Source: Glaucostegus cemiculus (lineage: Eukaryota). Taken from it: a stretch of DNA of 64,000 nt. Position 1 is the first letter of the stretch, and each line of letters opens with the position of its first letter. Both the position numbers and the translations under genes were made by a program. Below the pieces are notes generated by a model. The model made no database searches. It worked only from the letters and a program-made list of their open reading frames with translations, and had not been told where the DNA came from. Positions 20,551 through 63,559 of the stretch are shown here, piece after piece. The stretch covers positions 1 to 64,000 of the forward strand of contig CDPCPM010000793.1 in the NCBI GenBank assembly GCA_976551045.1, given 5' to 3'.

Positions 20551-23500
20551 AACGCTGAAACATTTTAACACTGAAAAAGCATGATGACATCATCACTTGC
20601 TTTTTTGCTTAGCAAACACAGCAGATGATATTGCACGGCATATAGTGAGAACATTAGCAAAGCTTCAAAACTAAATTAAATTTTCTTAACGCAGTACAGG
20701 AAAGATACTTAGAAACAAACCAGAATAATGCCTATTGCATTACACTCGCAGCTAGCACAAAAATACATAAGAAGCGCTTGACTAAGAGAAAGATTGACAA
20801 AATATCAGCAATAAACTGTAATCATATACAAGAATCACTTAGTTGGAAATGCAGATGCAAACGCATAAACTACTACCGCTTTCTAATTTGCAAAATGTCA
20901 GCAAATTGTCTTATATCAAAACCTTTTTTTTTAAAGCTTTTCTGATTTCATTGCTATGGAAGAACTTCCTCTGGCTCTTGGAAGAGATACTATTAACTAT
21001 GCACCCTTCACCTGTTGATTGTCTTAGGCGCTCTCTTTTAGGTATTAACTCCAAGGCAATCTAACTTGAAAGCGGAAGTGCAAAAATGCTGTCCAATTAA
21101 CTTTTCTCGAATCAAGGAACAATAAAGCTGAAAGTGTGCATTATTGATGACAAGAAGCACGGTTGAATTTCTTGGACAAAAGAGGGAAGAGGTTGTGTAA
21201 ATCCAGTCTGCAATGCACCACCAACGTTTGCTGTTACTTGTTGGTGTTAACTGTTAAATTATTAGTCGCAATATGTTATTACTACTGAGAAATTACTAAT
21301 GCAACTCCATCAGTTGCTTTGTATATTTGATCATTAAACTCGCGTTGTAACATATGTTGGTTACATCCTGTGGTTTACTTCATTCCAACGATGTACCTGG
21401 CAATATCTTACAGCTTAGTTTATTAGTGCAGTTTAAAATTGCGCTGTGTATTGCACGGTTGGAATTTATCTACATAAAAAATCACCAACCCCACACATTT
21501 TCAGTTTATTATTAGTCTAATGTCTAGGAAAATTCAGCGGACTAAAGGTAACATCCAACCATCTTGATTGATATAATTGTCAAACTGAAGGAGGTTAGTT
21601 AAATGTTCCCGATTAATCAGTGGCGCTTATTTGCATGATCTCAGACTCCAGAGTCCAACATCACTGTTTATTATTAGTTAAATAAACATGTTTCTGGAAA
21701 ACAAGGACTATCAGACAGAAGTAATTGGTTTAAAAGATAGATAAATACAGGTTAAAATGCTGGTAAGTGCGTCAAATACAACTTTATTAAATAATATAAA
21801 TCACGGTTTCAAAAATGTACGTCAGTACCTCTAAGGTCGGATATTACCTTTCTATATTATATCCGTAACTTCGATGGGACCGCCACCGTTCCAGCAACGC
21901 TGCCCCGCAGGCAAATACGCTTCAGGAACCCTTGGCCATTTGGGGAAATGTTGTCCGGCTGAACTATCTAAGTCACGATCGTGTCCCCGAAAACTGAACT
22001 TAAAGTGGGATAATGGTTTCCAGCATCAGGTTAGGTTGCCCGTAAAGTTCTTCGCCTTCTGCTTTCTATGCCCGTGCGAATGACAGATTAAAACAATGCT
22101 TAGACTTCACAAATCCCAGTGCTTCAAACATTAAACAAATTTTAAAATTCTTTGGAATTGTGGTCTTCCTCGAGGGAAGACCCTTCCTTAGTATATATTT
22201 TTAAAACACAAAAAGAGACTTTAAACAAATCTTACAAGCCTTCTAAGTGACGAAGTGATAACTTCAGTGATAATTGAACCTTATTTTTTTTGGCATTTTA
22301 ATTCGTTGGGATCTGGCAGTGTTTGTAACATTTGAAGTGTCCGCAAAGAGATTTCAGACGATATCAGACTCTGCACCTCTACAGCATTTTTTTCCCCACC
22401 AGCTTTCTGGGAACACGAGAACAGAACTCTTTACCTGCAGACTGTATCAGAAAGCTTTGGTTGCTTTAGGAACCTACTATGTACACTATTTTAAAGATGT
22501 ACAGATGCATAAATTAATACAAAAATCAAAACAAATCTTCACATAAGATAAAATGAATTAAAACAAATCACAGCACACGAACATTTTTGCAAGAAATACT
22601 TACACGCATCTTAGCAGAGAATGGCTTACCCTGTGAAAAGACTATTTTTTAATATAACACAAAAAAAGTTCAATTAACAGAAAAGTTAGGTTTCCCCTCA
22701 GAACCAACAGCAACCAACCCTGCACTACCACCTCGTCTTCAAAATACTTCTTCCTCGAGCCCATCAGAGTTCTGCCAAATCTACAAAATAAATAATTATA
22801 AAGCTTTGAAGTAACGTTAACAATTATCAAACTATTAAGTTCTGCCTTATCACATAGACTCTCTATACAACATAACCCTAAAGATTTATTACTATGAGGT
22901 ATCTTGAGAAATTGATAAGGAATGCACGGCCTGCGTTGTGTGAATACTCTAGGACGCAAAAAAGAGCTTTGGTAGTCAGCAAAAAGTGGAAATATCCTTT
23001 GGTATCAAAGAAAGTTTCATTGCATGGTTGCATGCAAAGCACCACGGTGAAAAGTTATTCCTTTTTTTTTAAAGTAGTGGCCTTTCTAGAGGCTGAGGTA
23101 TTCAAGAGTAAGGTGAGAAGAGGTCAACAGCGGTTTAACACTTTGGTTCAAGCAAGGCACTCGTCCTATGATTTTACAAATTTTGCAATATGTTTGCCTA
23201 TAGCTTTTATGAAGAAAACTTCACACTGAGTGACAGTTGAGGGTTTAAGGAAAGAACGCCGAGTAGCCCACTCACGAAGGCCGTGCAAGAAAAATCTTTG
23301 GTATTCTTTGGTATCATCAATGTGATTAAAATCACGAATGGAAATCGAGTGAGGTAGCGTCTTTGGTTCACACTATAAATAGTAGATCTTTACACATTTT
23401 TACACGTGGAAGCAGCTATTTTACCTTTGCTTCTTTGTCTTAATAATAGTAAATGATTACCAAATGTATCGTAAAGCTAACCACACCACAAGAAACACAA

Positions 23501-26500
23501 GGCCAGAGTATTGTTAAAATCCGGATTATTATCCATCACAATGGCCTCCTGCGTATGAACGCACCTGGCTAAATGTCACCTTTGAAAATCACTAGTTCAT
23601 TCTCTTTGTGCGAGGAGCATCCTTTAACAAAAATAAAGCTAGACAGTTTCCTTTGGTCATGTTGGGAGTGAAAGGGAGGCGTGGATGGGAAGGACGTTTA
23701 TAAAATTCAAGTTTATAGCGGGAATATAACATTGGTAAAAAGTCACTCAAGGCGTGTAAAATTACGAAAACAATACCTGACAGAAATATATATTTCATAT
23801 CACCGTGACTTCAAGAATGAGTGACTGGTGCACAACGAGCAGTCAGAGCAATGACTCCAAGTCAGACTACATTTGAAACCCTAAATATTTTCACAATTGC
23901 GATGTCCATTTTTAAACTCAATTATTCCCACAAATAAACACATATCTTTTCAGAAGAAATTCCCCTGGAATTTATCTAGCAGTTTCAAAAGGGTAGGTGT
24001 TTGGTACGAAGAGAAGTCTTTGCTGAGCGGAAATACTTTGTGGCATTTTACTTCCAGGCAACGAGAGAAAGGCGAATTTCTTACATAATGCAACACACCC
24101 ACCCCTCCACACCTCGCTCTGGCTGTGGCCGCATTATATAACTTTTTAATTATATCTGTATATCGTGTGGTCCGTATTCGACAGCGACTCGGTAAAACGT
24201 TGTTTTAAAACTGCCAAGCAAAATAAACCTTAAAATGAGTATAAAATATTGGGTTTCGCTTGCATATTAGTTGGACTTGAGGTAAAGAAGTTACTTTGAT
24301 GGAGCTTGACTTGAAACGTTCGTTGTTACAATGAATATTCAATCCTCGTCATTTATTTTTATCAGAAATGTCATGAAAGGGTCGCACCATCGCGAGTAGT
24401 AGGTTTGTTAAGTCCAATTAAACTTCAAGAGGCCGGTCCTCTTCGAGATCTTTGACTTTTTTTTGGAGCATATGTACTTCCTACCCTATGGACAGGTGTT
24501 CAATCATAAGACATGATACTATGTGTGTCGTGTGTCGTGTCAGTGACCCCATGAGATTGCTCCCCAAGTATCTTGTTGATACCCTGACCCACTTCATCTG
24601 ATGGCATCGGTATGTGATAAAGTATCCCGAAGACGGATACTAATACAATTGATCGGTGTAAAAACAAAATGGACTAGTTTTGCATTGTTGCTCGCCGACA
24701 AGTGCAATGTTCCTGAATAAAGAGTTATCTTTGGTTCTTTAGCAGAATTTTTTAAAGCACAAAGGGTAATATGTAACTGCAACTGGGTGACTGAAATGTT
24801 GCATCCTGTCAAGAATAAGTCATATCTTGACTGAAACCTGAAACATACTGTTCAGTAGCCCAGATCTGTGTTCTACAGAGTTCCATCTCTGTTGTGTTTC
24901 ACTATGGGAAACTAACCTGAATCATATAACAACTTCTGGTGTTAACAGCACCGAGCAGTAAAGTGCCTCCCTTTTCATTGGTGCATCCAACCAGATGGCT
25001 TTACTGTCAGCATTTGGTCATTGTAACTTAGGAAAAACAAAGCTTCTACAGTACTGACTTCCCAGGGTTATACACTGTATCTTCCCCGGTCCATGCAGAC
25101 CATTGTGTGCGGATTTAGTTCCATAAGGGACAAGAATCTAAACTTGCTTTGAAACTTGTTATGTTGACCAATAATTTACATAATTTTGTATACTCCATAA
25201 TGTATATTTAATGAAGGGGAGTTTGTATTTTTTTTAGTTGTTCGTTTTAGAGTTGATTGACCAATAGATTAAACAAAACATATAAATTATTATTTTTCTA
25301 ACATATAAGGTGGGGTAACTATTTTTTTTAAAGAATTGTGTTATAATATTCATTTTGTAGGCCACAGGGTTTTAGAATATACATTGCATGGTACTAAGGG
25401 AGTTTAATAAATTTACCCTGAAGCATATAGGGCGACTCGCAGTGGTCTGCGGCATTCTTTCATAGGGAATTCTTGTGTTAAACCTAAGTGAATTTGATAT
25501 TGCTGTTACTTGTGTAAGTACAGGCTGGTACACCTGACAGATGTGTCGGGAAAAGCCTGCGGCATTGATAACTGATTTGTTGTATCGCTGTGTTCAGTGG
25601 AGTATTCATTCAATTAGCATATTTGACAATGCTATCCCCAAATGGAAGCATCTTTTGTTGCCTCCTTGCCTCTGCGGCAATGTGGATAGCAAGGAACAGG
25701 GATAAAGTGAGTGATTCCCATCTGATTCTACGGTAACTGCCACCTTTCTGTAACGTATAAAGCAAAGTTTTGCCAATAAAATACCATATCATTATTTTGG
25801 TGTGCAAAATATATTCGAATAGAAAATAGTAAGTGGTGTATTTCATCGTAGATGAACGAAGCTCCCAGTACAACTAATATTTGTGCTTCTGGCGAAATCT
25901 CCCTGTCATTTATCCCGCTCTTTGTTATCCAACAGAGTTTTCATCTACAATACTGGGGTTGGTGTTATAGAATGGGTTTTTTTTTGGTCATTAGCTGTTG
26001 CATTTCCTCGGCCTGTGATACAAAGAGAATGCACTAGTGTGAGGTGACAGAACAGCTCTCACAGTGTTGAACTGTGCCCAGAACCGGGCCTTTCGCGTTC
26101 AACCAGCATAGAGCTCGAATTCAATCACATTCCAAATGTACACAGAACGACTCCACAATTGTAAGGGTCGTGCCTGAGCACAACCCACAGACCAGCCCCT
26201 TGCAAAGTTTTCTGGCCACTGGCACATACACGGGTATTTCTACAACATACACCTTGGTTGGTATATCCGAGGAAGTGAAATGGGTCAATGTTTGAAATAA
26301 AGTTCTTTTCATGAAGATGCTCCCAACGACTTTACAGCCACACACACTGAACGATGTTGGATGATGAAGGTGTACGGCCAGCGGCTTCATTCTTTTTTTT
26401 TGCAAAAGTCATAATAAAGTGTTGTAGAACGGAGTCCTAATGCAGGTCAATTAAGTCTTTGGTTTCGTTGGGCATATAAATATTATATTGTCTTTGAGTT

Positions 26501-26580: not shown

Positions 26581-26873
26581 TCATGCTTTGGTACAAGTGC
26601 TTGATGAGGAAGATGAGTTGACTGGGTTGGAGGTGCCGTCATCCTGCCACTTATCCAAACTCCTCCGACGTGCGTTCATAAAGAAATTGCTGACGGTGCT
26701 CAGCTCCAAGCCCAGCTGCTGGGAAATGGTTATTTGCAATTCTTTGGACGGACGCTTGTTTTCTTTGAATATTGCGTGTAGAGTTCTGCGCTGAACATCC
26801 GTGAACACCAGCCGAGGTTTCTTGGGCGCGGCGCCCCTCTCTTTACCATGCTCCTGCTCTTTTCTTTTGCACG
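26581..26873 (-). CDS. ONECUT1: ONECUT1/HNF6 coding exon 2 (linker plus divergent homeodomain)
   Basis: Acceptor tctttgtcttgcAG|CG completes the phase-1 Ala codon (G+CG). Encodes ACKRKEQEHGK...KKPRLVFTDVQRRTLHAIFKENKRPSKELQITISQQLGLELSTVSNFFMNARRRSLDKW...SSSTCTKA, stop TGA at 26581-26583. 1108+293=1401 nt = 466 aa plus stop. Confidence 0.97.
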
Positions 26874-29800
26874 CTGCAAGACAAAGACGTAATATTAATC
26901 GATACCCACTCACAGCTCCGGAGAAAATACCAGACAACGGCAAGGTGAGAAACAGATGCAACGATCTAAAACAAAGACCGGGCTGCGTTATTTGGACCAG
27001 ACTTTCTTAGTTTTCAAATAAGATCCCAATTAGTCATTTAACGATTGGAGATTTCATTCACGAGGAGTTATTTGTCAATTTCGGGTCGATGACTGACAAC
27101 AATTTAAATGTAACCACTTGTGCGTGATTGGGGTTATTGACTACACGCAAGTCACCGCCAAAAGAGGTCTCCGGAGCAACATTTAAATATCTTTAGGCAT
27201 GTGCCCAAATCAAAACATTCTCAACGTGAGATGAAACATTAAAGCAAAACATTAACGAGGAACAAACGTCATTATCAGGCCAACCAACTTGTTCTGAGTG
27301 TTAACTCTGCAGTTATTTTCTGTGTTACCTTGTCTAGAACCATCTGACTCCAAGTCCACGTCCACTTCTTCGGTTCTCTCCCTATCCAGGAATTCGCCCA
27401 ACTCTCTCGAGTAAAGCTGCCAGGTTGTGGGTGCCCTGTACCTGGCATCATTTTGTCTCCCAATCTGGCTCCCTTTATGTGTAAAAACAAACGGACGCCG
27501 GAATTTGATTTGAGGGTGGATAGATTTTTTTTTTGTTTTTGTTGTTGTTTTTGTTGTTGTATGGTGAAATAAACCAACTGGTCAGAGGCGATGAAGATAC
27601 GGAAAGTATGTGCAAACACGATTAGGGTCTTTAAGACAGCGAGATGAAATTCAACTATGAATCAGTAGATGGCGCAGTTCTAACTAACTTTAAACCTTGA
27701 GACTACTCTGAAAATGAACTACATACAAGGTAATAGAGACAGATTCTCGATTGACTTGATAAACACAATTGTTTCCTGCACATTGAGATCAACGCCTTAA
27801 AAAGAGCATTATTAACTAGCGAACTAAATTAAATGTTATTTTTATAGCTTCGGTGAACTGCAGCAATTGTACCAACCGCTTTCATCTTAACTCCGCTTTA
27901 TAAATAAAATGCACCGAAACAAAATTTTGTAAACATTTAAATCCCACAATAGACAGTTCGCTCAGTGACACTGCAGAGGTCTTTTCAAATTGATGCAAAT
28001 TTCCTTCGATTTCAACCTTTGTTCCTTGATGTAAACACCACAATCCCTCTCGTTTTGGCTGCATTATTTTTCTTTAAAATCCACATTACTTAATTAAAAG
28101 GTTTCGGTTGTCAACGACTACAGTGCAAAATTGAACTGTGGCTGTCCAATGAAATATGCTTCAGCAGAGGTCAACAGTCTCATCTCGGGAGGTAAAAGAC
28201 TCATTCCACGCGGAGAGACACCTAACCTGCAGCCCAAGATAAAGATAGAGCTGTCAGATGTCATTTATCATGTAAATAACCAGGGGGAGGAAGGGAATAT
28301 CGACCAAAATTGCAACTTAAGATCGTCGTTTTAAATAGGATGTGAACTTTCAAAAACAATATTTGGGGTATTGGAAGGGGCAGAATGGAGCCGCGGAACT
28401 GTCCGTGGTGCTGAATGCAATATGCCCCGCGATACCTCGCGGAGATCTTGAGTCAGCAATGCTTCTGTACCGGCCCATTTTAAAAACAATCTCAGATTGT
28501 AAAATTAAACATTCCACGGGATTTCAATATACATTATGAGTAAAGCAATAATCCACTTAATCTCCATTTCCACACGTTGTTTTCAAAATAGAGTCACCTA
28601 AATTGCTTTTAATCTCTACCGACTGTAATTTGGACAGGACCGTTTTGAAATCATGCTGGAATTGGCTATCAGAGATACGTTGCGTAATCCATAATTATGC
28701 ATTGGCCCAATTTCCCCAGATTGCAGCCTCTAGCCAACATCTTGTTTTGATTCCTTGTGCTAAATTACCTCACTGCCCACTGCTGTAAACGTAGGTGTTT
28801 ACATCTATAAATATTTTTTCAGTTCCTGACGTAAGGAGCTGAAGCTGCGGAATCAACCAGATGGCGGCGCACTGGTCCTGTGGAACAAGTCGACGGTGAC
28901 GAAAAATCTTTAAAGATTCCGAAAAGTTTTAACGCATAGATGTCTACCACATTACGACGTTTTGTACTAAGAAGGAGGACGGAGAAAATATCTTTAAAAT
29001 CGTTTTACAAATAAGGAAGAAATATGCCATTTCCCTTATTTTATACTTGAAATTAGTTTTATTTGGAAAGACTAATAAAAGTCAGGATAAATAGAAAGTT
29101 TTTATTTCCTATTTACCATTGGAATATTTTAATCTCAGGATTTAAGCAACCACATATGCCATTTTTATCCACTAAACTCACGCGTTTAATTACTCAATAA
29201 CGGAACAAAACAGTGAGCAGCGGAGGAAGATCTTTGTTAATTCATTGTTGTTTTCTTTCTAAATTTGAGAATAAACTGATCAGCGTAATTGCCATGGATA
29301 TATCCACTGAGTATCTCCGGTCACAACCAGTAGCAAGGTGCCCGGAATAATAATGGAGCGAATTAAAACAAACTCCCGCTGAAAAGCCTTGAGTACAAGC
29401 TGTGCCAATTTCACTGCTGCCACAGGGCGTCCCCCTTTGCCTCCCTTTAATTGCTCCCACGTCATTTGACCTAAATCAATCACTTCACTCAAATTAGATA
29501 TAGGCAGATAACACTTTAAACTTCATCATTTAACTATTAATTACAATTGTCCTCATCTTTGTAAGTGCAAAAAGGCTATCAATTTTGCTTTTAATTATTT
29601 ACTGAAACCTAATCGAGGCGAAATTGTTGCACAAGTAGGTACGGGATGAACCAACAATAGCCTGTATTTCTATTCCAAACCCACCAGTTTGACAGTGCGT
29701 TTTGGCTGTAATATTATTGAACTCCACAAAGACTGGCTGAAAGTCTGCATGTTCAGTATTCCTCCTCTGTACAACGACAGGCAATCTAATACTATAGAAA

Positions 29801-32800
29801 ACGAAGGAACTAAACTCCAGCATTCTTAGCTCAAGACTAAAGGTTAAATATTTCGAAAACTGTGCTGCATTTTTAAAAAATCATTAATATCCTTAAATAG
29901 GCGACTGTGTTACCTGCCCAAATATCAGTAACATCGTTTTAATGCTGGTAAATGCCTTCAATTTAGACAAACATTAACAGAAAACAAATGTGCTTGGATA
30001 TTAGCTAGTTATAAATCAATGAGGTTACAAGGACACTGTCAGGCAAAATCAGGAAATGTCACAGGTGTAGAACTTTCCCAGAGTCCAAGCATTTAGCCTA
30101 AAATATTCCATAACTCGTATCGCTTCCCTTATCTTTACAATGTAAACAAGCAAATAGCGTGCAGTGTTGCAAACTGTGGAAACCAGTGCTTTCAAATGTA
30201 ACTAAGTTTATGAGAACCCAGAAGCTTCCATCCAAATGAGGCTCTTCCGATCACACAAAGAAGCATGCCAGACTCCAGGAGTTGCCGGGCTGTTCTAGGT
30301 TCAAATAAAGCCCAGAAGTGCACATCTGTACACTTCCACAGAAGGGGACTTTTAGGTCAGAATTTTAATTAAATAATTAATAACAAGAGACCTTTCTGGA
30401 AAGTACATCCTATAACTCTTGGAACATATCAAGGCCTTGTTAGAAGAGACAGCCGAAATAATTAACAATTTCAGGTTTCCAAGCAACGCAATATAAAATA
30501 TATAAAACATACCCCAAGGAAATTATTCACAGTATAATGATTGTTTCACAATTTAATTTTGACATTTAAAAGTACGGCGATGACCTTTCCTCCTGTCACC
30601 TATATTTTAGTTTGTCTAATTGGAGCCCAGAAGCAAATAAAAGTAATGAATTTCCAATATCATCGGTGATCACTTGTATTACTGCATGTGCAAAGGCACC
30701 GATTGTTGTGAAATTTGGCGTATAATCGCCAAATTTATATTGTATAATGTTATTTTGACAGCCTTGAAATCTAGTCTTTGATCTATATAAGTGGCACAAG
30801 AACACATCTTCCAAACGCTGGAACAAAAATGTGCTCGGGCTCCTTGCTATTGGAATTTACGCCAACCGCATTCTGCACTTTAACTCATTCTTGCGTCTGT
30901 AAATGATTGTTTGGAATCAACTACATGTAGGGAACGCGATGATAAGACAAAGCGAATGCTGACAACTGTTGTAATCACTTGGAGCAATGGCTATCTCTTT
31001 TCATAAATTAGAAATGTTTACAAATTCAGTCTTAAATGAATGTACGCCTTAAACCCGTGACATTTGCTCGTTTCCCTGTTACATGGGTCACAACGGAAGG
31101 ACTGCCATGCTAATATATTCACAAAATACCGACTCAGCAGCCTATTTGCATGCGCAGGCCTGTTGGTAACATTTAGCTAGTTTTTAATACGTAAAGTGAC
31201 TTCAACAGATTCCTATATATCTGGTTTAAGTACATTTCCTCCATCTAGAGATGCCGACACTCCCAATTATGCCGGGGTGAAACACATCAACACTCACGTG
31301 AAGAAATAGATATCAATAGTCCCCTAATTTGTCCTTGGAGGTGCAACTAGTGGGCGTTGCTGAGCGATACTCATTTGAATCGAATTAACTCATTTGGATG
31401 TAATGTTAAAAAAACTGCGCTGTCACGTTAGTGATTTTACACGGAGACAATCCATGATTTTGATTATTTTTTTAAAAAATCATTCAAACTAATTTGCATC
31501 TTTTACATTCTTATTGTTTAATTGAATATTATTGTCAGGTTAATGAACCTATTTTATACTTTCCTCACAAGTGAAATTCTCAAGAAATTCTTTATCTCTA
31601 TATTTAAATTACAATGCATGCTATGTAGATTAAAACCTACGCACTGATACAGTGGGGAATGAGAATTCATTTTGAACAAAGTATACTGTAACGTTGTGGA
31701 TTTAATTGCTTTACTGTTGCCGCACCTGTCAGCAGCTACCGACTACATGAACCAGTCTCTGCTGACGGGGCCATTTAAAGTCTGTTCCCAATATCGCCAA
31801 AACCTGTTAGCACCACCAAACCACCCAAAAAAAGCTTTTTGTTGATTCTTCCCCCCCCCCCCAATACCAGGATTGAGATCACCTCCCAGTCTGAAAATTA
31901 ATATTTGAAAATTAATTACGGCGCGTTCAAGATTTGTGTTATGCCATTTAATTTGTCTATCTAAATGTGAAACCAAGCGCTAATTAACCCATCGCCCTCT
32001 TTAAAATGCAAGACACCAAATAAAAATATAATTTTAACAACTCTTCAGCGACAGTTAGTAAATTAAATATATATAAAATAGGTAAATCTGGATTATATAC
32101 GACAAGGGAAGAACAAAATGGAGTGTAAAGAGGTCACCCTTGCAATTAGTATTTTCTGCTTGCATTTGAAGATAGTACAGGAAGTGTCAAGACCTCAATA
32201 TTCCTTACATGTAACTACCAATTTTGAGACTGTTTGCGGGAGGTTCAATGTAATCTCGGTACTAGAAATCCCCCAGGGATTCGCGGGAAGACGCAAACAC
32301 AGGAGGCGAGCTCGACAAAGCAAGAAGGGAATTGGATGAATAACACATTTCACTTTCGCAATGGAATTTGTTTCGGCCTCTTCATGCAAGGACTTTTTTT
32401 AAAAAAGAATGTGTCCTATATAAAGCAAAGAAACGCGATGCTCATCAGGTACAGATTGGTAAAAAAAAGGAAAGCATCCGGATTAACAGTGGCCAAATGA
32501 TCACTCCCCTACAATAAGCAGTAAAGGTTCAGCGTGTTCATTCCCCCAAAGGTCAAAACATAGCAAGAAGGCATTCAAGTTAATGAAACATTTTCAGTAC
32601 CCCCAAGATCTGACATAACTATCTGTTGTGGGATTTTAATGGCAATTATATATCAGGATTTAAAAAAATGGAATTTGGTTTGTTTAAATTATTTCTGCGG
32701 GTTATTGTACAATTTGTTCAGACAGATACGTCTTTCATTTTGTGTTTAAATGAGGGCCCGAGTTGTTCAGTGAGAAAGAATAAATAATAAATGAATTGAC

Positions 32801-34679
32801 TGAATAATAGATCACAGGTTAGGACACGTTTAGATAGCTTTCCATCAGGTTGTTATGTTTAGCAGCTATAAATGTAACGGCTCAACGTAAACATTTATTA
32901 CTTAATGGACGCCTAAAAATCGCAGTGTCAGAGATATTGCAACAACCACAGCAACCTCTTTTGAACACCACTATGAAGTGAAATAAATGCATATTAATAA
33001 GGCAAAGAGAACAGTTGTGGTTAAAGAGGTGATTAGCAATCCAAATCAGAGTGTGGGTATTTTCTGTTGAAATGGAGACGTGACCTGTTCCAACATCAGC
33101 CAACCCGCCTTGGCAGCGTTTACCTTCCGATAACACCCATAAGACTCTACAACATTTTCTAATTCAAGTGGTTGTTTCCAGTATCGATCCATGCAAATAA
33201 ATGTAGACTGAGGTCGACAAAATTGTCGTAAAAATACACTCAAGGCAGCGTCTAAAAATCGAACAATACGAATGTTATCAATCGTTCGATGGAGATTTCT
33301 TGACTAGTTATTTACTCAAGCGTACGCATGCTCTCACAGCAATTGAATTTGGATTTAAATTATAGAACACGAAGAGTTCGGGGTAGATCATTTAAATACA
33401 TGTACACGGCACCTCTGCTTTGAGTAAGCTACATTTTAAAGGGGAACATTCAAATGGTTTATTCTGTCAACTTGATTTTATACAGAAGTAATTCAGAATA
33501 TTGCTCGATATTATTCAACAAATCTTTGCTTTTTTACGAGGCTGGACTATTACTTTCAAAATAAATTATCTTTTCAGGTGAAACCTCAGGCTGTTCGAAC
33601 AATTCCCAAAATAAGCGATAACCAGGCGACTAATGTACTGCGATTCGCTTTAAAACCAAAACAAAGTTTCCTGTACATTTTACAGCTGGGGTTAGGAGAG
33701 ATTACGCGCATTAATTGCTTTCTCGTTTTATATAAACGTGCTTCTTTATAGAAATGTCACACACACGCGAACAAATACAAAAACAGCCTTCCTTTGTGCA
33801 CTTAGATCTGAATTAAAATTGCCCGCAAGTGCACGTCAGAGTCTGTGTGAAACGGATCACTGCTCCCGACTCTGGCTTAGATTGACTGTCTTTCGTTCTC
33901 TTGGGAAAAATTAATAGAGACCTATCAGTTAATTAACAAAGCCTCACGCAGGGCCACACCGAGAGAACAAACCCAGACTTCCCTCACTCGCTACAACACA
34001 ATCAGAAAGTTAGCCAAAGTAACAATTCGCCTTTTGTTTTGCAAATCGGTCGCGACAAATCTCATGCTCAATAAAATTGTAGGGGTAGAAATGAGGCCAA
34101 TTAAAATTACTCTTGGCTTCATTGTCAACCCAGAACGTGCAACAATAGTTAGTAATTTACTTTCACGGGCTTTCAAGAAGAATATTTGGACCCCGGTCTC
34201 TCCTGGATACCGATTGAACTTCACACCGTTACTGTAAGGGGAGCGGTTCGTTGCCAAAGGCACTGGATCAAGCCGTTACCCTGAAAGTAACCAAGTCACA
34301 GACCTGAGGTTACATTTTGCGAGACGTTTCTCATTCTGCAGCAGACAAATCGGCTGCGGTGAACTGACACCACCGGGTTTGTACAGTTGGGCACCAGACA
34401 CCGGTGTAGACAGGGCCAGGTCGCCACTCCAGCTGCAACTATAGATTAAAGAAAATGCTGTCAGGCTGGTGTGAGACCGGGGGGAGGGGGGGGAGCGGTT
34501 TGTCTGGCTTGGGATCCAGCAAGTTTCAGGTACAAACCGGACTAATGCTAAAGGACCGTTTTGTTTAACCGTGGTGGGATTCTGGATCACTGTATCCTTT
34601 CCCTGTTGAATGCATTTACCGAGACTGTGTGGCCGCGGGACCCAGCACAAGCCCCGATATAACGGCGAGCTCTGCTTAC
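26874..34679 (-). other. ONECUT1: ONECUT1 intron (GT-AG, phase 1, 7806 nt) between CUT and homeodomain exons
   Basis: GTAAGC donor and polypyrimidine+CAG acceptor join the two ORFs in frame at the position expected for vertebrate Onecut genes. Confidence 0.93.
28395..28415 (-). promoter_or_regulatory. RE1/NRSE (REST/NRSF binding element), intronic
   Basis: Minus strand reads TTCAGCACCACGGACAGTTCC, a 17/17 match to the RE1 core TTCAGCACCACGGACAG. Confidence 0.85.
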
Positions 34680-35787
34680 CTGCCAAGCGTAGGGCCGACA
34701 TTCGCTGGAACTCGGGCTCCTGCAGCCACTTCCACATGCGCCTGAAGGTCTCCCGGCCCGACTTGAGCTTACTCCAAGGTTTCGGGTTCCTCAGTAAGTC
34801 GGACAGGGTGCCCTGCGAGCGGCACAGCACCCGTTGCGCGAAGATCGCTTGCGGGATGCTGTAACGCTTGAGCTCGGTGGTGATCCTCTGCGCTACCTCC
34901 TTGGTGTTGATCTCCTCCAGCTGGCTCGACCCGCCGCCGCCTCCTCCTCCGCCGCCGCCACCTCCTCCTCCTCCGCCGCCGCCTGCCTGCGACCCGTTGG
35001 AGGAAGGGGGCGGCTGCTCGCCCCTGGCCGAGCCCAGGACCTGCCCGTGGCCCTGTGCGTGCGGGTGCACGTGGGGGTGGTGGTGCAGACCGTTGATGGG
35101 CACCATGCCCACCGAGGGAGGGCTGAGCCCCCGGCTGAGGTGCTGCTCCGCTCGGCCTAACATGCCCGGGTGGCCCTCGAAGCCGTTCGGGGTCAGCATC
35201 TTGTCAGCGGGCATGGGTCCAGCGTGCCCGTAAGGTGTCAGACCGTGCTGGGAGTTGTGGATGGTGCCCAGGCCGTTGGTGAGAGGGGAGCCGGAGAGCG
35301 GGGAGAGGCTCTGAGCCATGCCGCTCATATCCTTGTGATAGTGGCTGTACAGATTGTTCATTGAAGTCAAACCTCTCTCGTCCCTCATCAAGGTGAAGCT
35401 GCCGCTCACGTTGCCGGCCAGCCGCTGGTGGTGATGGTGGTGGTGGTGAGGGAACTTGTCGGACACGGTAGAGATGGGAGGCAGCGGCTGCAGAGGGGTC
35501 AGCGTGGTGTACGTACTGCTCATGCCCGGCACCGTCTCACAAGCCATGGTCATGGTCGGGTGCAGCGGGGCGGCCAGTGCGTGGTCCGGCGGCCGGTGGT
35601 AGTCTCCGGGACCGTCCAGGATCGAAGCCATGCTGGACACCATGGAGCGAGCGTGCACCGGCAGATTCCGATGGCCGATCGAGCGGCTGTGCGGGCTGGG
35701 GCTACTCAGCAGGTCGCCCGGCTGCACCGGTTCATGGGGCACCCCATGCAAATCGCCCAGGTTCTCCATCGTTAGCTGAGCATTCAT
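34680..35787 (-). CDS. ONECUT1: ONECUT1/HNF6 coding exon 1 (N-terminal region, STP box, poly-His, poly-Gly, CUT domain)
   Basis: Begins MNAQLTME in Kozak-like ccaaccATG. Contains TYTTLTPLQPLPPISTVSDKF, His7 and the CUT domain EEINTKEVAQRITTELKRYSIPQ...LSDLL...RMSALRLA. Ends at donor G|GTAAGC (intron starts 34679). RITTELK and the N-terminus match paralog 1 rather than ONECUT2/3. Confidence 0.97.
34930..34983 (-). repeat. Imperfect GGN triplet repeat encoding Gly18
   Basis: 54 nt of mixed GGC/GGA/GGT/GGG codons immediately before SSQLEEINTK. Confidence 0.95.
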
Positions 35788-62920: not shown

Positions 62921-63559
62921 GGATGAAAGACTCTGGGAGAAGTCAAGGGGCCTGACAATAATGTACAGTGGGGATGTACAAATACTGGAATTAGGGAAGT
63001 ACGTGGCACAATGAATATAGTGGCAGAGTTTAATGTTCACAGAGACGTGGACTCAGAAACAGCTTGAGTGAAGAAGACATGAGATTTTTAGAATGCATTT
63101 GAGACCATTTATATTTTAGAATTTTATATTTTAGAACCATCAAGGGAACAGATCATACTACCTTCAGTTAATATGACTTCCATAGGAGATAGAGTAAGGC
63201 CTGGAATTATAGTACAATTAGCTTAATGTCGGTGATCGGTGAAAGATGCAATAGAAAAAATATCTGGAAACTGACAATATAATTACGAGTGTATAGGAAC
63301 GTTCAAAAAGGAAGGTCATGTTCAAATGAACACTGAATTTTTTTGAATAAGTAATGGAGTGACTAAGGGTATTATCGTAGAGGTTGAAACTCCCTAGTCC
63401 GGCATTCTGTGATATGTTAACCCTTTTTTTGCATTGGTATTCACTGTGGATTACACTGCAAATATCCAGATGATAACAGATGGGTTAGTTTTCAATAGCA
63501 TGAAAGAACTTATAAAAGTACCAATTAAGGGACAGAGTATTAGAAACACTCACTGGACT

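Follow-up and report, generated by a model that had tools for sequence, protein, structure and literature searches.

The 64-kb window, by which we mean the whole stretch of DNA analysed here, carries the ONECUT1 gene of a batoid on its minus strand. ONECUT1 (HNF6) is a regulator of liver, pancreas, and young nerve cells. The best matches of the host protein are chondrichthyan HNF6 proteins, headed by HNF6 of Mobula birostris (95%), and the gene falls within the HNF6 clade with a support of 100/99 in a tree of 29 rows, of which 25 were picked by name from about 130 stored proteins and four came from the ray genome. Two coding exons flank a long intron that separates the CUT domain from the homeodomain (Table 1). 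Directly before the CUT domain, at about 34930-34990 on the minus strand, exon 1 encodes a glycine run much longer than that of the Mobula protein. The intron contains a canonical binding motif for REST (RE1, or NRSE) on the ONECUT1 sense strand. Measured along the transcript, this motif is 6,265 bases past the donor and 7,372 bp past the ATG, and exon 2 follows after about 1.5 kb. With the gene assigned to the HNF6 clade and the intron delimited at 7,806 bp, the original prediction of an RE1 inside the ONECUT1 intron proved correct. The same intron includes, 922 bp downstream of the RE1, a candidate in-frame cassette exon (the spacer exon), one of six open 144-bp intron candidates bounded by AG and GT or GC, and the only one beginning with GGA. 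By description, it fits the onecut1 spacer exon of the little skate (bioRxiv 10.1101/2025.07.30.667746).

Table 1. Position and strand of the features discussed in the text (window coordinates, except for the ONECUT2 site)
Feature	Position	Strand	Remarks
ONECUT1 coding exon 1	34680..35787	-	ATG (35787) to the end of the CUT domain
CUT-homeodomain intron of ONECUT1	26874..34679	-	7,806 bp, GT (34679)...AG (26874)
ONECUT1 last coding exon	26581..26873	-	homeodomain, stop codon
Canonical RE1/NRSE	28395..28415	-	two half-sites, 2-nt spacer, gene-sense, in the ONECUT1 intron
Constrained non-coding block, candidate enhancer	27961..28415	.	about 455 bp, few differences from organism A
Candidate spacer exon	27329..27472	-	144-bp in-frame cassette, 48 aa, CUT-to-homeodomain, begins GGA
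Ten miR-9-5p 7mer-m8 seed matches	22455..26463	-	below the stop codon, presumed 3' UTR (end unmapped)
Perfect-core (15/15) RE1 in the ONECUT2 intron	C19:4497261-4497277	-	gene-sense

On the minus strand, the element reads TTCAGCACCACGGACAG-TTCC, and its exact 17-nt core occupies positions 28399-28415. This core agrees with the published canonical consensus TYAGMRCCNNGGMSAG (PMC2926608), the match starting at 28399. The half-sites fit TYAGMRCC (left) and GGMSAG (right), and the 2-nt spacer AC is followed by an intact GG dinucleotide. Allowing up to three mismatches, the core remains the sole match in the window; at three mismatches, shuffled windows gave a mean of 0.14 matches, with one match in 14 of 100 shuffles. 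A base-composition model predicts 2.7e-6 occurrences of the exact 17-mer in 64 kb and 0.12 in the whole genome. Because we found 14 exact copies genome-wide, as opposed to none of the reversed control, the RE1 is not a product of chance; the original prediction had called a chance match in the window very unlikely. When the 2-nt spacer was left free, 80 sites were recovered in the genome versus 3 for the control, which suggests that the motif is under selection in the ray genome. Three tandem RE1 cores with a 56-bp spacing were observed elsewhere, at C639:17188-17316. The tail of the ONECUT1 element, TTCC, departs from the usual one in having a T at position 18, a position that is C in nine, A in two, and T in one of 12 other exact sites. 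One of the 14 exact genomic copies belongs to a 99.8% duplicate of the window locus on contig C421. The duplication spans 62.8 kb, window positions 591-63411 being 99.8% identical to C421:746385-809184, and the C421 copy is likely an uncollapsed second haplotype. About 1.75 kb of extra DNA is present in this copy near window position 63411.

In transcript sense, a constrained non-coding block begins with the RE1. In comparison with a close relative (organism A), the block shows 8 differences in 455 bp versus 32 in the 360 flanking bp up to 28614 (Fisher p 4e-6, with block borders set after viewing the data), counts that rest on the difference rows listed, taken as complete up to 28614. From this constraint and from the short motifs that it contains, we infer that the block is a candidate enhancer. 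FOX-like, ONECUT, and E-box words occur within it, scored with no null model and useful as leads only. At 28299-28305, this genome reads ATCGAC where all four close relatives aligned read ATCGAT (28304 C>T). We take ATCGAT to be an ONECUT/CUX-type core, and this position is a possible autoregulatory site inside the block. As for the RE1 itself, it is free of differences in organism A, among the differences listed, and in organism I, where all seven differences of the aligned piece lie outside the motif. Organisms G and H, represented by 40 of 105 difference rows, were left out of this count. An unconstrained 21-mer would stay unchanged between these close relatives with a probability of 0.14-0.32, and the identity seen in A and I is therefore weak evidence. 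A more distant relative (organism D) aligns at 28290-28361 with 5 differences in 72 positions, and has no aligned piece over the RE1. Two further distant relatives have no alignment cover over this region, a gap that proves nothing. The alignment of organism D ends 34 bp short of the element, with dissimilar sequence beyond, and speaks neither for nor against the presence of the motif in that relative.

The ray genome has three further ONECUT loci, on contigs C19, C15, and C541. The C19 locus is ONECUT2, according to its best matches and a moderately supported branch (94/61), the C15 locus groups with proteins named ONECUT3, and the C541 locus is divergent. This last one (C541:155176-183002, minus strand) represents a fourth, strongly diverged ONECUT-like gene on a long branch, with 85% in the CUT and 69% in the homeodomain exon. 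The ONECUT2 intron, too, holds a perfect-core RE1 with a T at position 18; its donor distance is 12,097 bases and its acceptor distance 1,214. In a scan of 944 kb, matches to the canonical consensus were confined to the introns of ONECUT1 (in the window and in its C421 duplicate) and ONECUT2. The two elements share a perfect core, the sense orientation, and the rare T at position 18, and each precedes its acceptor by 1.2-1.5 kb. The ONECUT3 intron (95.7 kb) holds a single antisense site with two mismatches, a non-canonical site lies about 15 kb below exon 2 of ONECUT3, and the intron of the divergent C541 gene holds an antisense RE1-like site with a 7-nt spacer. We gave no weight to these ONECUT3 and C541 sites, which are antisense and weaker or non-canonical.

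A REST gene is encoded in the ray genome (PF24540 above cut-off, 64.2 bits). Its first coding exon, the part compared, matches a batoid REST at 99%, and a PDB search with this exon returned generic zinc fingers only. In mammals, REST binds RE1 sites and recruits co-repressors. The orthologous intron, where the original prediction proposed to look for REST ChIP-seq peaks, does carry them in human and mouse. A review cites REST ChIP-seq sites near Onecut1 (PMC5323410, citing Johnson 2007). In Table S2 of PMC4499139, human ONECUT1 has a REST peak at hg19 chr15:53075562-53075880 with a score of 2758 that is classed as human-mouse conserved, the other human ONECUT1 row scoring 53; the mouse partner peak is at mm10 chr9:74868433-74868655 (mm9 chr9:74716268-74716456). 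In mouse E13.5 pancreas, the REST peak at Onecut1 is placed at +6,635 from the TSS (PMC8415321 Table S3). REST is thereby documented at the Onecut1 intron in both ES cells and E13.5 pancreas (PMC4499139, PMC8415321).

The position of these peaks could be compared with that of the ray elements. Human ONECUT1 c.1 lies at 53082081, as given by variant coordinates in PMC10628528, and we took the length of human exon 1 as 368 codons plus one base, with a carnivore HNF6 of 465 aa that shares H33 and P94 as guide. This places the centre of the human peak about 5.3 kb past the ONECUT1 donor, versus 6.3 kb for the ray RE1 (ratio 0.84). In human ONECUT2, the intron of 34,492 nt opens 1,571 nt downstream of the TSS (PMC10356556), and the reported ONECUT2 REST peaks are at human chr18:55114378-55114719 (score 4195, about +11.6 kb) and at +11,447 from the mouse TSS. 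These ONECUT2 peaks lie about 10 kb into the intron, versus 12.1 kb for the ray RE1 (ratio 0.83). Thus, each paralogue keeps its own donor distance between ray and mammal, a correspondence of position only. The distance to the acceptor differs, the ONECUT2 intron measuring 34.5 kb in human and 13.3 kb in the ray. The human ONECUT1 intron, which we take to be about 31 kb, is far longer than the 7.8-kb ray intron, and the shortness of the latter accounts for the ray RE1 being also near exon 2. The placement of exon 2 beyond the human peak depends on this approximate intron length and on the listed distance of 23.9 kb to an intragenic CpG. Judged by its position, the ray RE1 is likely the same old site as the mammalian ONECUT1 intronic REST site.

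A blastn comparison of the ray ONECUT1 and ONECUT2 introns gave 0 matches. Local alignment of 300 and 1000 bp on either side of the RE1 stayed at chance level, with 41-98% of 200 random windows reaching as high a score. Since the flanks do not align, shared ancestry of the ONECUT1 and ONECUT2 elements is unproven. We propose only tentatively, and with more doubt than confidence, that an intronic RE1 predates the ONECUT1/ONECUT2 duplication and was kept in both copies, in rays and mammals, while the flanking similarity was lost. If this were true, ONECUT would be a founding target, by which REST became connected with the neuronal and endocrine programme as vertebrates arose.

Altogether, we consider it probable that the canonical RE1 of the window, which is predicted to bind REST strongly, represents the same old site as in mammals and acts as a damper and not as an on/off switch. 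In cells with high REST levels, that is, non-neural cells and progenitors, REST would sit at the edge of the constrained block and restrain the element there, which is probably an enhancer. This brake would come off as REST levels drop in newly formed neurons or in endocrine precursors. Expression in liver and pancreas progenitors would proceed via other elements, which the RE1, at over 7 kb from the start codon, would leave open, and the miR-9 sites would end ONECUT1 expression later, as a separate layer.

The original prediction joined the RE1 and the miR-9 cluster in an incoherent feed-forward loop, a circuit with the RE1 as its dominant switch: loss of REST would free both ONECUT1 and miR-9, and miR-9 would later silence ONECUT1, resulting in a transient pulse in newborn neurons. 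Several parts of this scheme are in place. Between positions 22400 and 26580, a region whose lower border was chosen after viewing the sites, there are ten miR-9 seed matches in sense and none in antisense, and 500 shuffles averaged 0.45, with 3 at most. The seed agrees with three miR-9 hairpins of the ray genome, and seed sites within 15 kb number ten for ONECUT2, seven for ONECUT3, and one for the divergent C541 gene. What the prediction called the miR-9 cluster thus consists of seed sites downstream of the stop codon and not of miR-9 genes, an Rfam scan of the window having found no RNA family. Moreover, the reciprocal feedback between REST and miR-9 that the prediction invoked is reported in human cells, where REST represses miR-9-2 (PMC2978373), and repression of chick Onecut1 by miR-9 is described in a review (PMC5415563). 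In the skate retina, onecut1 drops from 46 to 7 TPM from embryo to adult (bioRxiv 10.1101/2025.07.30.667746). A transient ONECUT1 pulse in newborn neurons would be logically consistent with such a circuit.

However, the arm leading from REST to miR-9 was not recovered at the ray loci scanned: 80 kb around each of the three miR-9 loci yielded no RE1 that fits the canonical or the non-canonical consensus. Additional miR-9 genes may have escaped this search, in which 65 candidates were scored. The C207 miR-9 locus presents two RE1-like candidates with two mismatches, one of them at C207:4959806 (minus strand), 6.2 kb upstream of the hairpin. In addition, the claim that REST loss de-represses ONECUT1 finds no support in the mouse pancreas data. 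In Rest-knockout E18.5 pancreas, a bulk sample of a late stage, the log2FC is 0.30 for Onecut1 (adjusted P 0.12) and -0.29 for Onecut2 (P 0.13; PMC8415321). Table S7 of PMC4499139, which the paper links to experiments with REST depletion, lists Onecut2 but not Onecut1, and Onecut2 is reported to rise in REST-knockout myoblasts (PMC12343973). The RE1 is also distal. In the Rest-knockout pancreas, up-regulation was most enriched for promoter-proximal REST binding (PMC8415321), so that distal REST binding need not silence. This fact, together with the presence of REST at the intron in bulk E13.5 pancreas, softens the puzzle of how expression in liver and pancreas coexists with the site. For these reasons, we regard the pulse circuit driven by a dominant switch as rather unlikely. 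The weak knockout effect on mouse Onecut1 would fit a damper; being non-significant, it would equally fit a site without effect on ONECUT1.

The latter possibility belongs to a second alternative, namely that REST-binding sites arose independently in batoids, in mammals, and in ONECUT2, or that REST binds here with no consequence for ONECUT1. RE1 turnover is high: only 15.3% of the REST peaks of human ES cells have a conserved counterpart in mouse, and many RE1s are of recent origin (PMC4499139). An independent origin would also agree with ONECUT1 and ONECUT2 flanks that resemble each other no more than random windows do, and with the alignment of organism D ending before the RE1. Yet in ray and mammals alike, ONECUT1 and ONECUT2 each have an intronic site, at donor distances that are specific for each paralogue, and under uniform placement a given 13.3-kb interval would hold a perfect-core site with a probability of 3.7e-4. 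This value overstates the case because RE1s cluster at neural genes. On balance, we find this alternative distinctly unlikely.

We give very little credence to a third explanation, in which the RE1 controls a local feature, for example how often the 144-bp spacer exon is spliced in, or an antisense or internal transcript. The candidate spacer exon is indeed close by, and in the little skate the spacer isoform amounts to 68% in the embryonic retina and 10-11% later (bioRxiv 10.1101/2025.07.30.667746). Nevertheless, the analogous spacer is minimally included in mouse retina (same source), although the mouse intron has a REST peak. Finally, a chance match or a transposon-carried motif is practically negligible, given the expectation of 2.7e-6 per window, a 501-bp region that matches only its own locus and the duplicate (in a search skipping common words), the lack of any other match for 27500-29500 in the 614 kb of genome compared, flanks of other exact RE1 sites that look unrelated by eye, and the constraint of the block adjoining the RE1.

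The presence of REST at the ONECUT1 intron is already known in mammals, and what this analysis adds is the second intronic site, in ray ONECUT2. In the literature searched, which included few subscription journals, we found no report of an RE1 at ONECUT1 in cartilaginous fish, and none of a shared RE1 position in ONECUT1 and ONECUT2. REST as a whole word does not appear in PMC10515288 or PMC6582315, nor does ONECUT in bioRxiv 2020.07.07.192229. Because the binding is known in mammals, what is gained is a date and a testable element, and no new mechanism. If an RE1 has indeed been kept at a similar place in ray and mammals, and in both genes, ONECUT1/2 would belong to the most ancient core of the REST network. 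Deletion of the 21-bp element would test how a gene of liver, pancreas, and new neurons lives with a neuronal repressor.

The closest known counterpart of the ray RE1 is the mammalian ONECUT1 site, with which it has in common the gene, the intron, and a similar donor distance (about 5.3 versus 6.3 kb). They differ in that REST binding has been measured at the mammalian site, whereas the ray site is known from its motif. The mammalian ONECUT2 intronic site likewise has a ray counterpart, the sense RE1 with a 15/15 core located 12.1 kb into the ONECUT2 intron. Unlike this intron, the upstream region differs: mammalian ONECUT2 has further upstream peaks at -350, -29.6 kb, and -73.7 kb, and no site with two or fewer mismatches was present in about 110 kb above the ray ONECUT2 start. 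Among fishes, NRSEs of the fugu protocadherin clusters bind REST and suppress non-neuronal activity, and five NRSEs have been predicted in the protocadherin clusters of the elephant shark (PMC2926608). The fish protocadherin elements and the ray RE1 conform to a common consensus of two half-sites with a 2-nt spacer. The protocadherin NRSEs, however, are multiple and located in or near the promoters of variable exons, whereas the ray RE1 is a single, distal, intronic, predicted site, and its host, unlike the protocadherin clusters, is a transcription-factor gene that is used in endoderm too.
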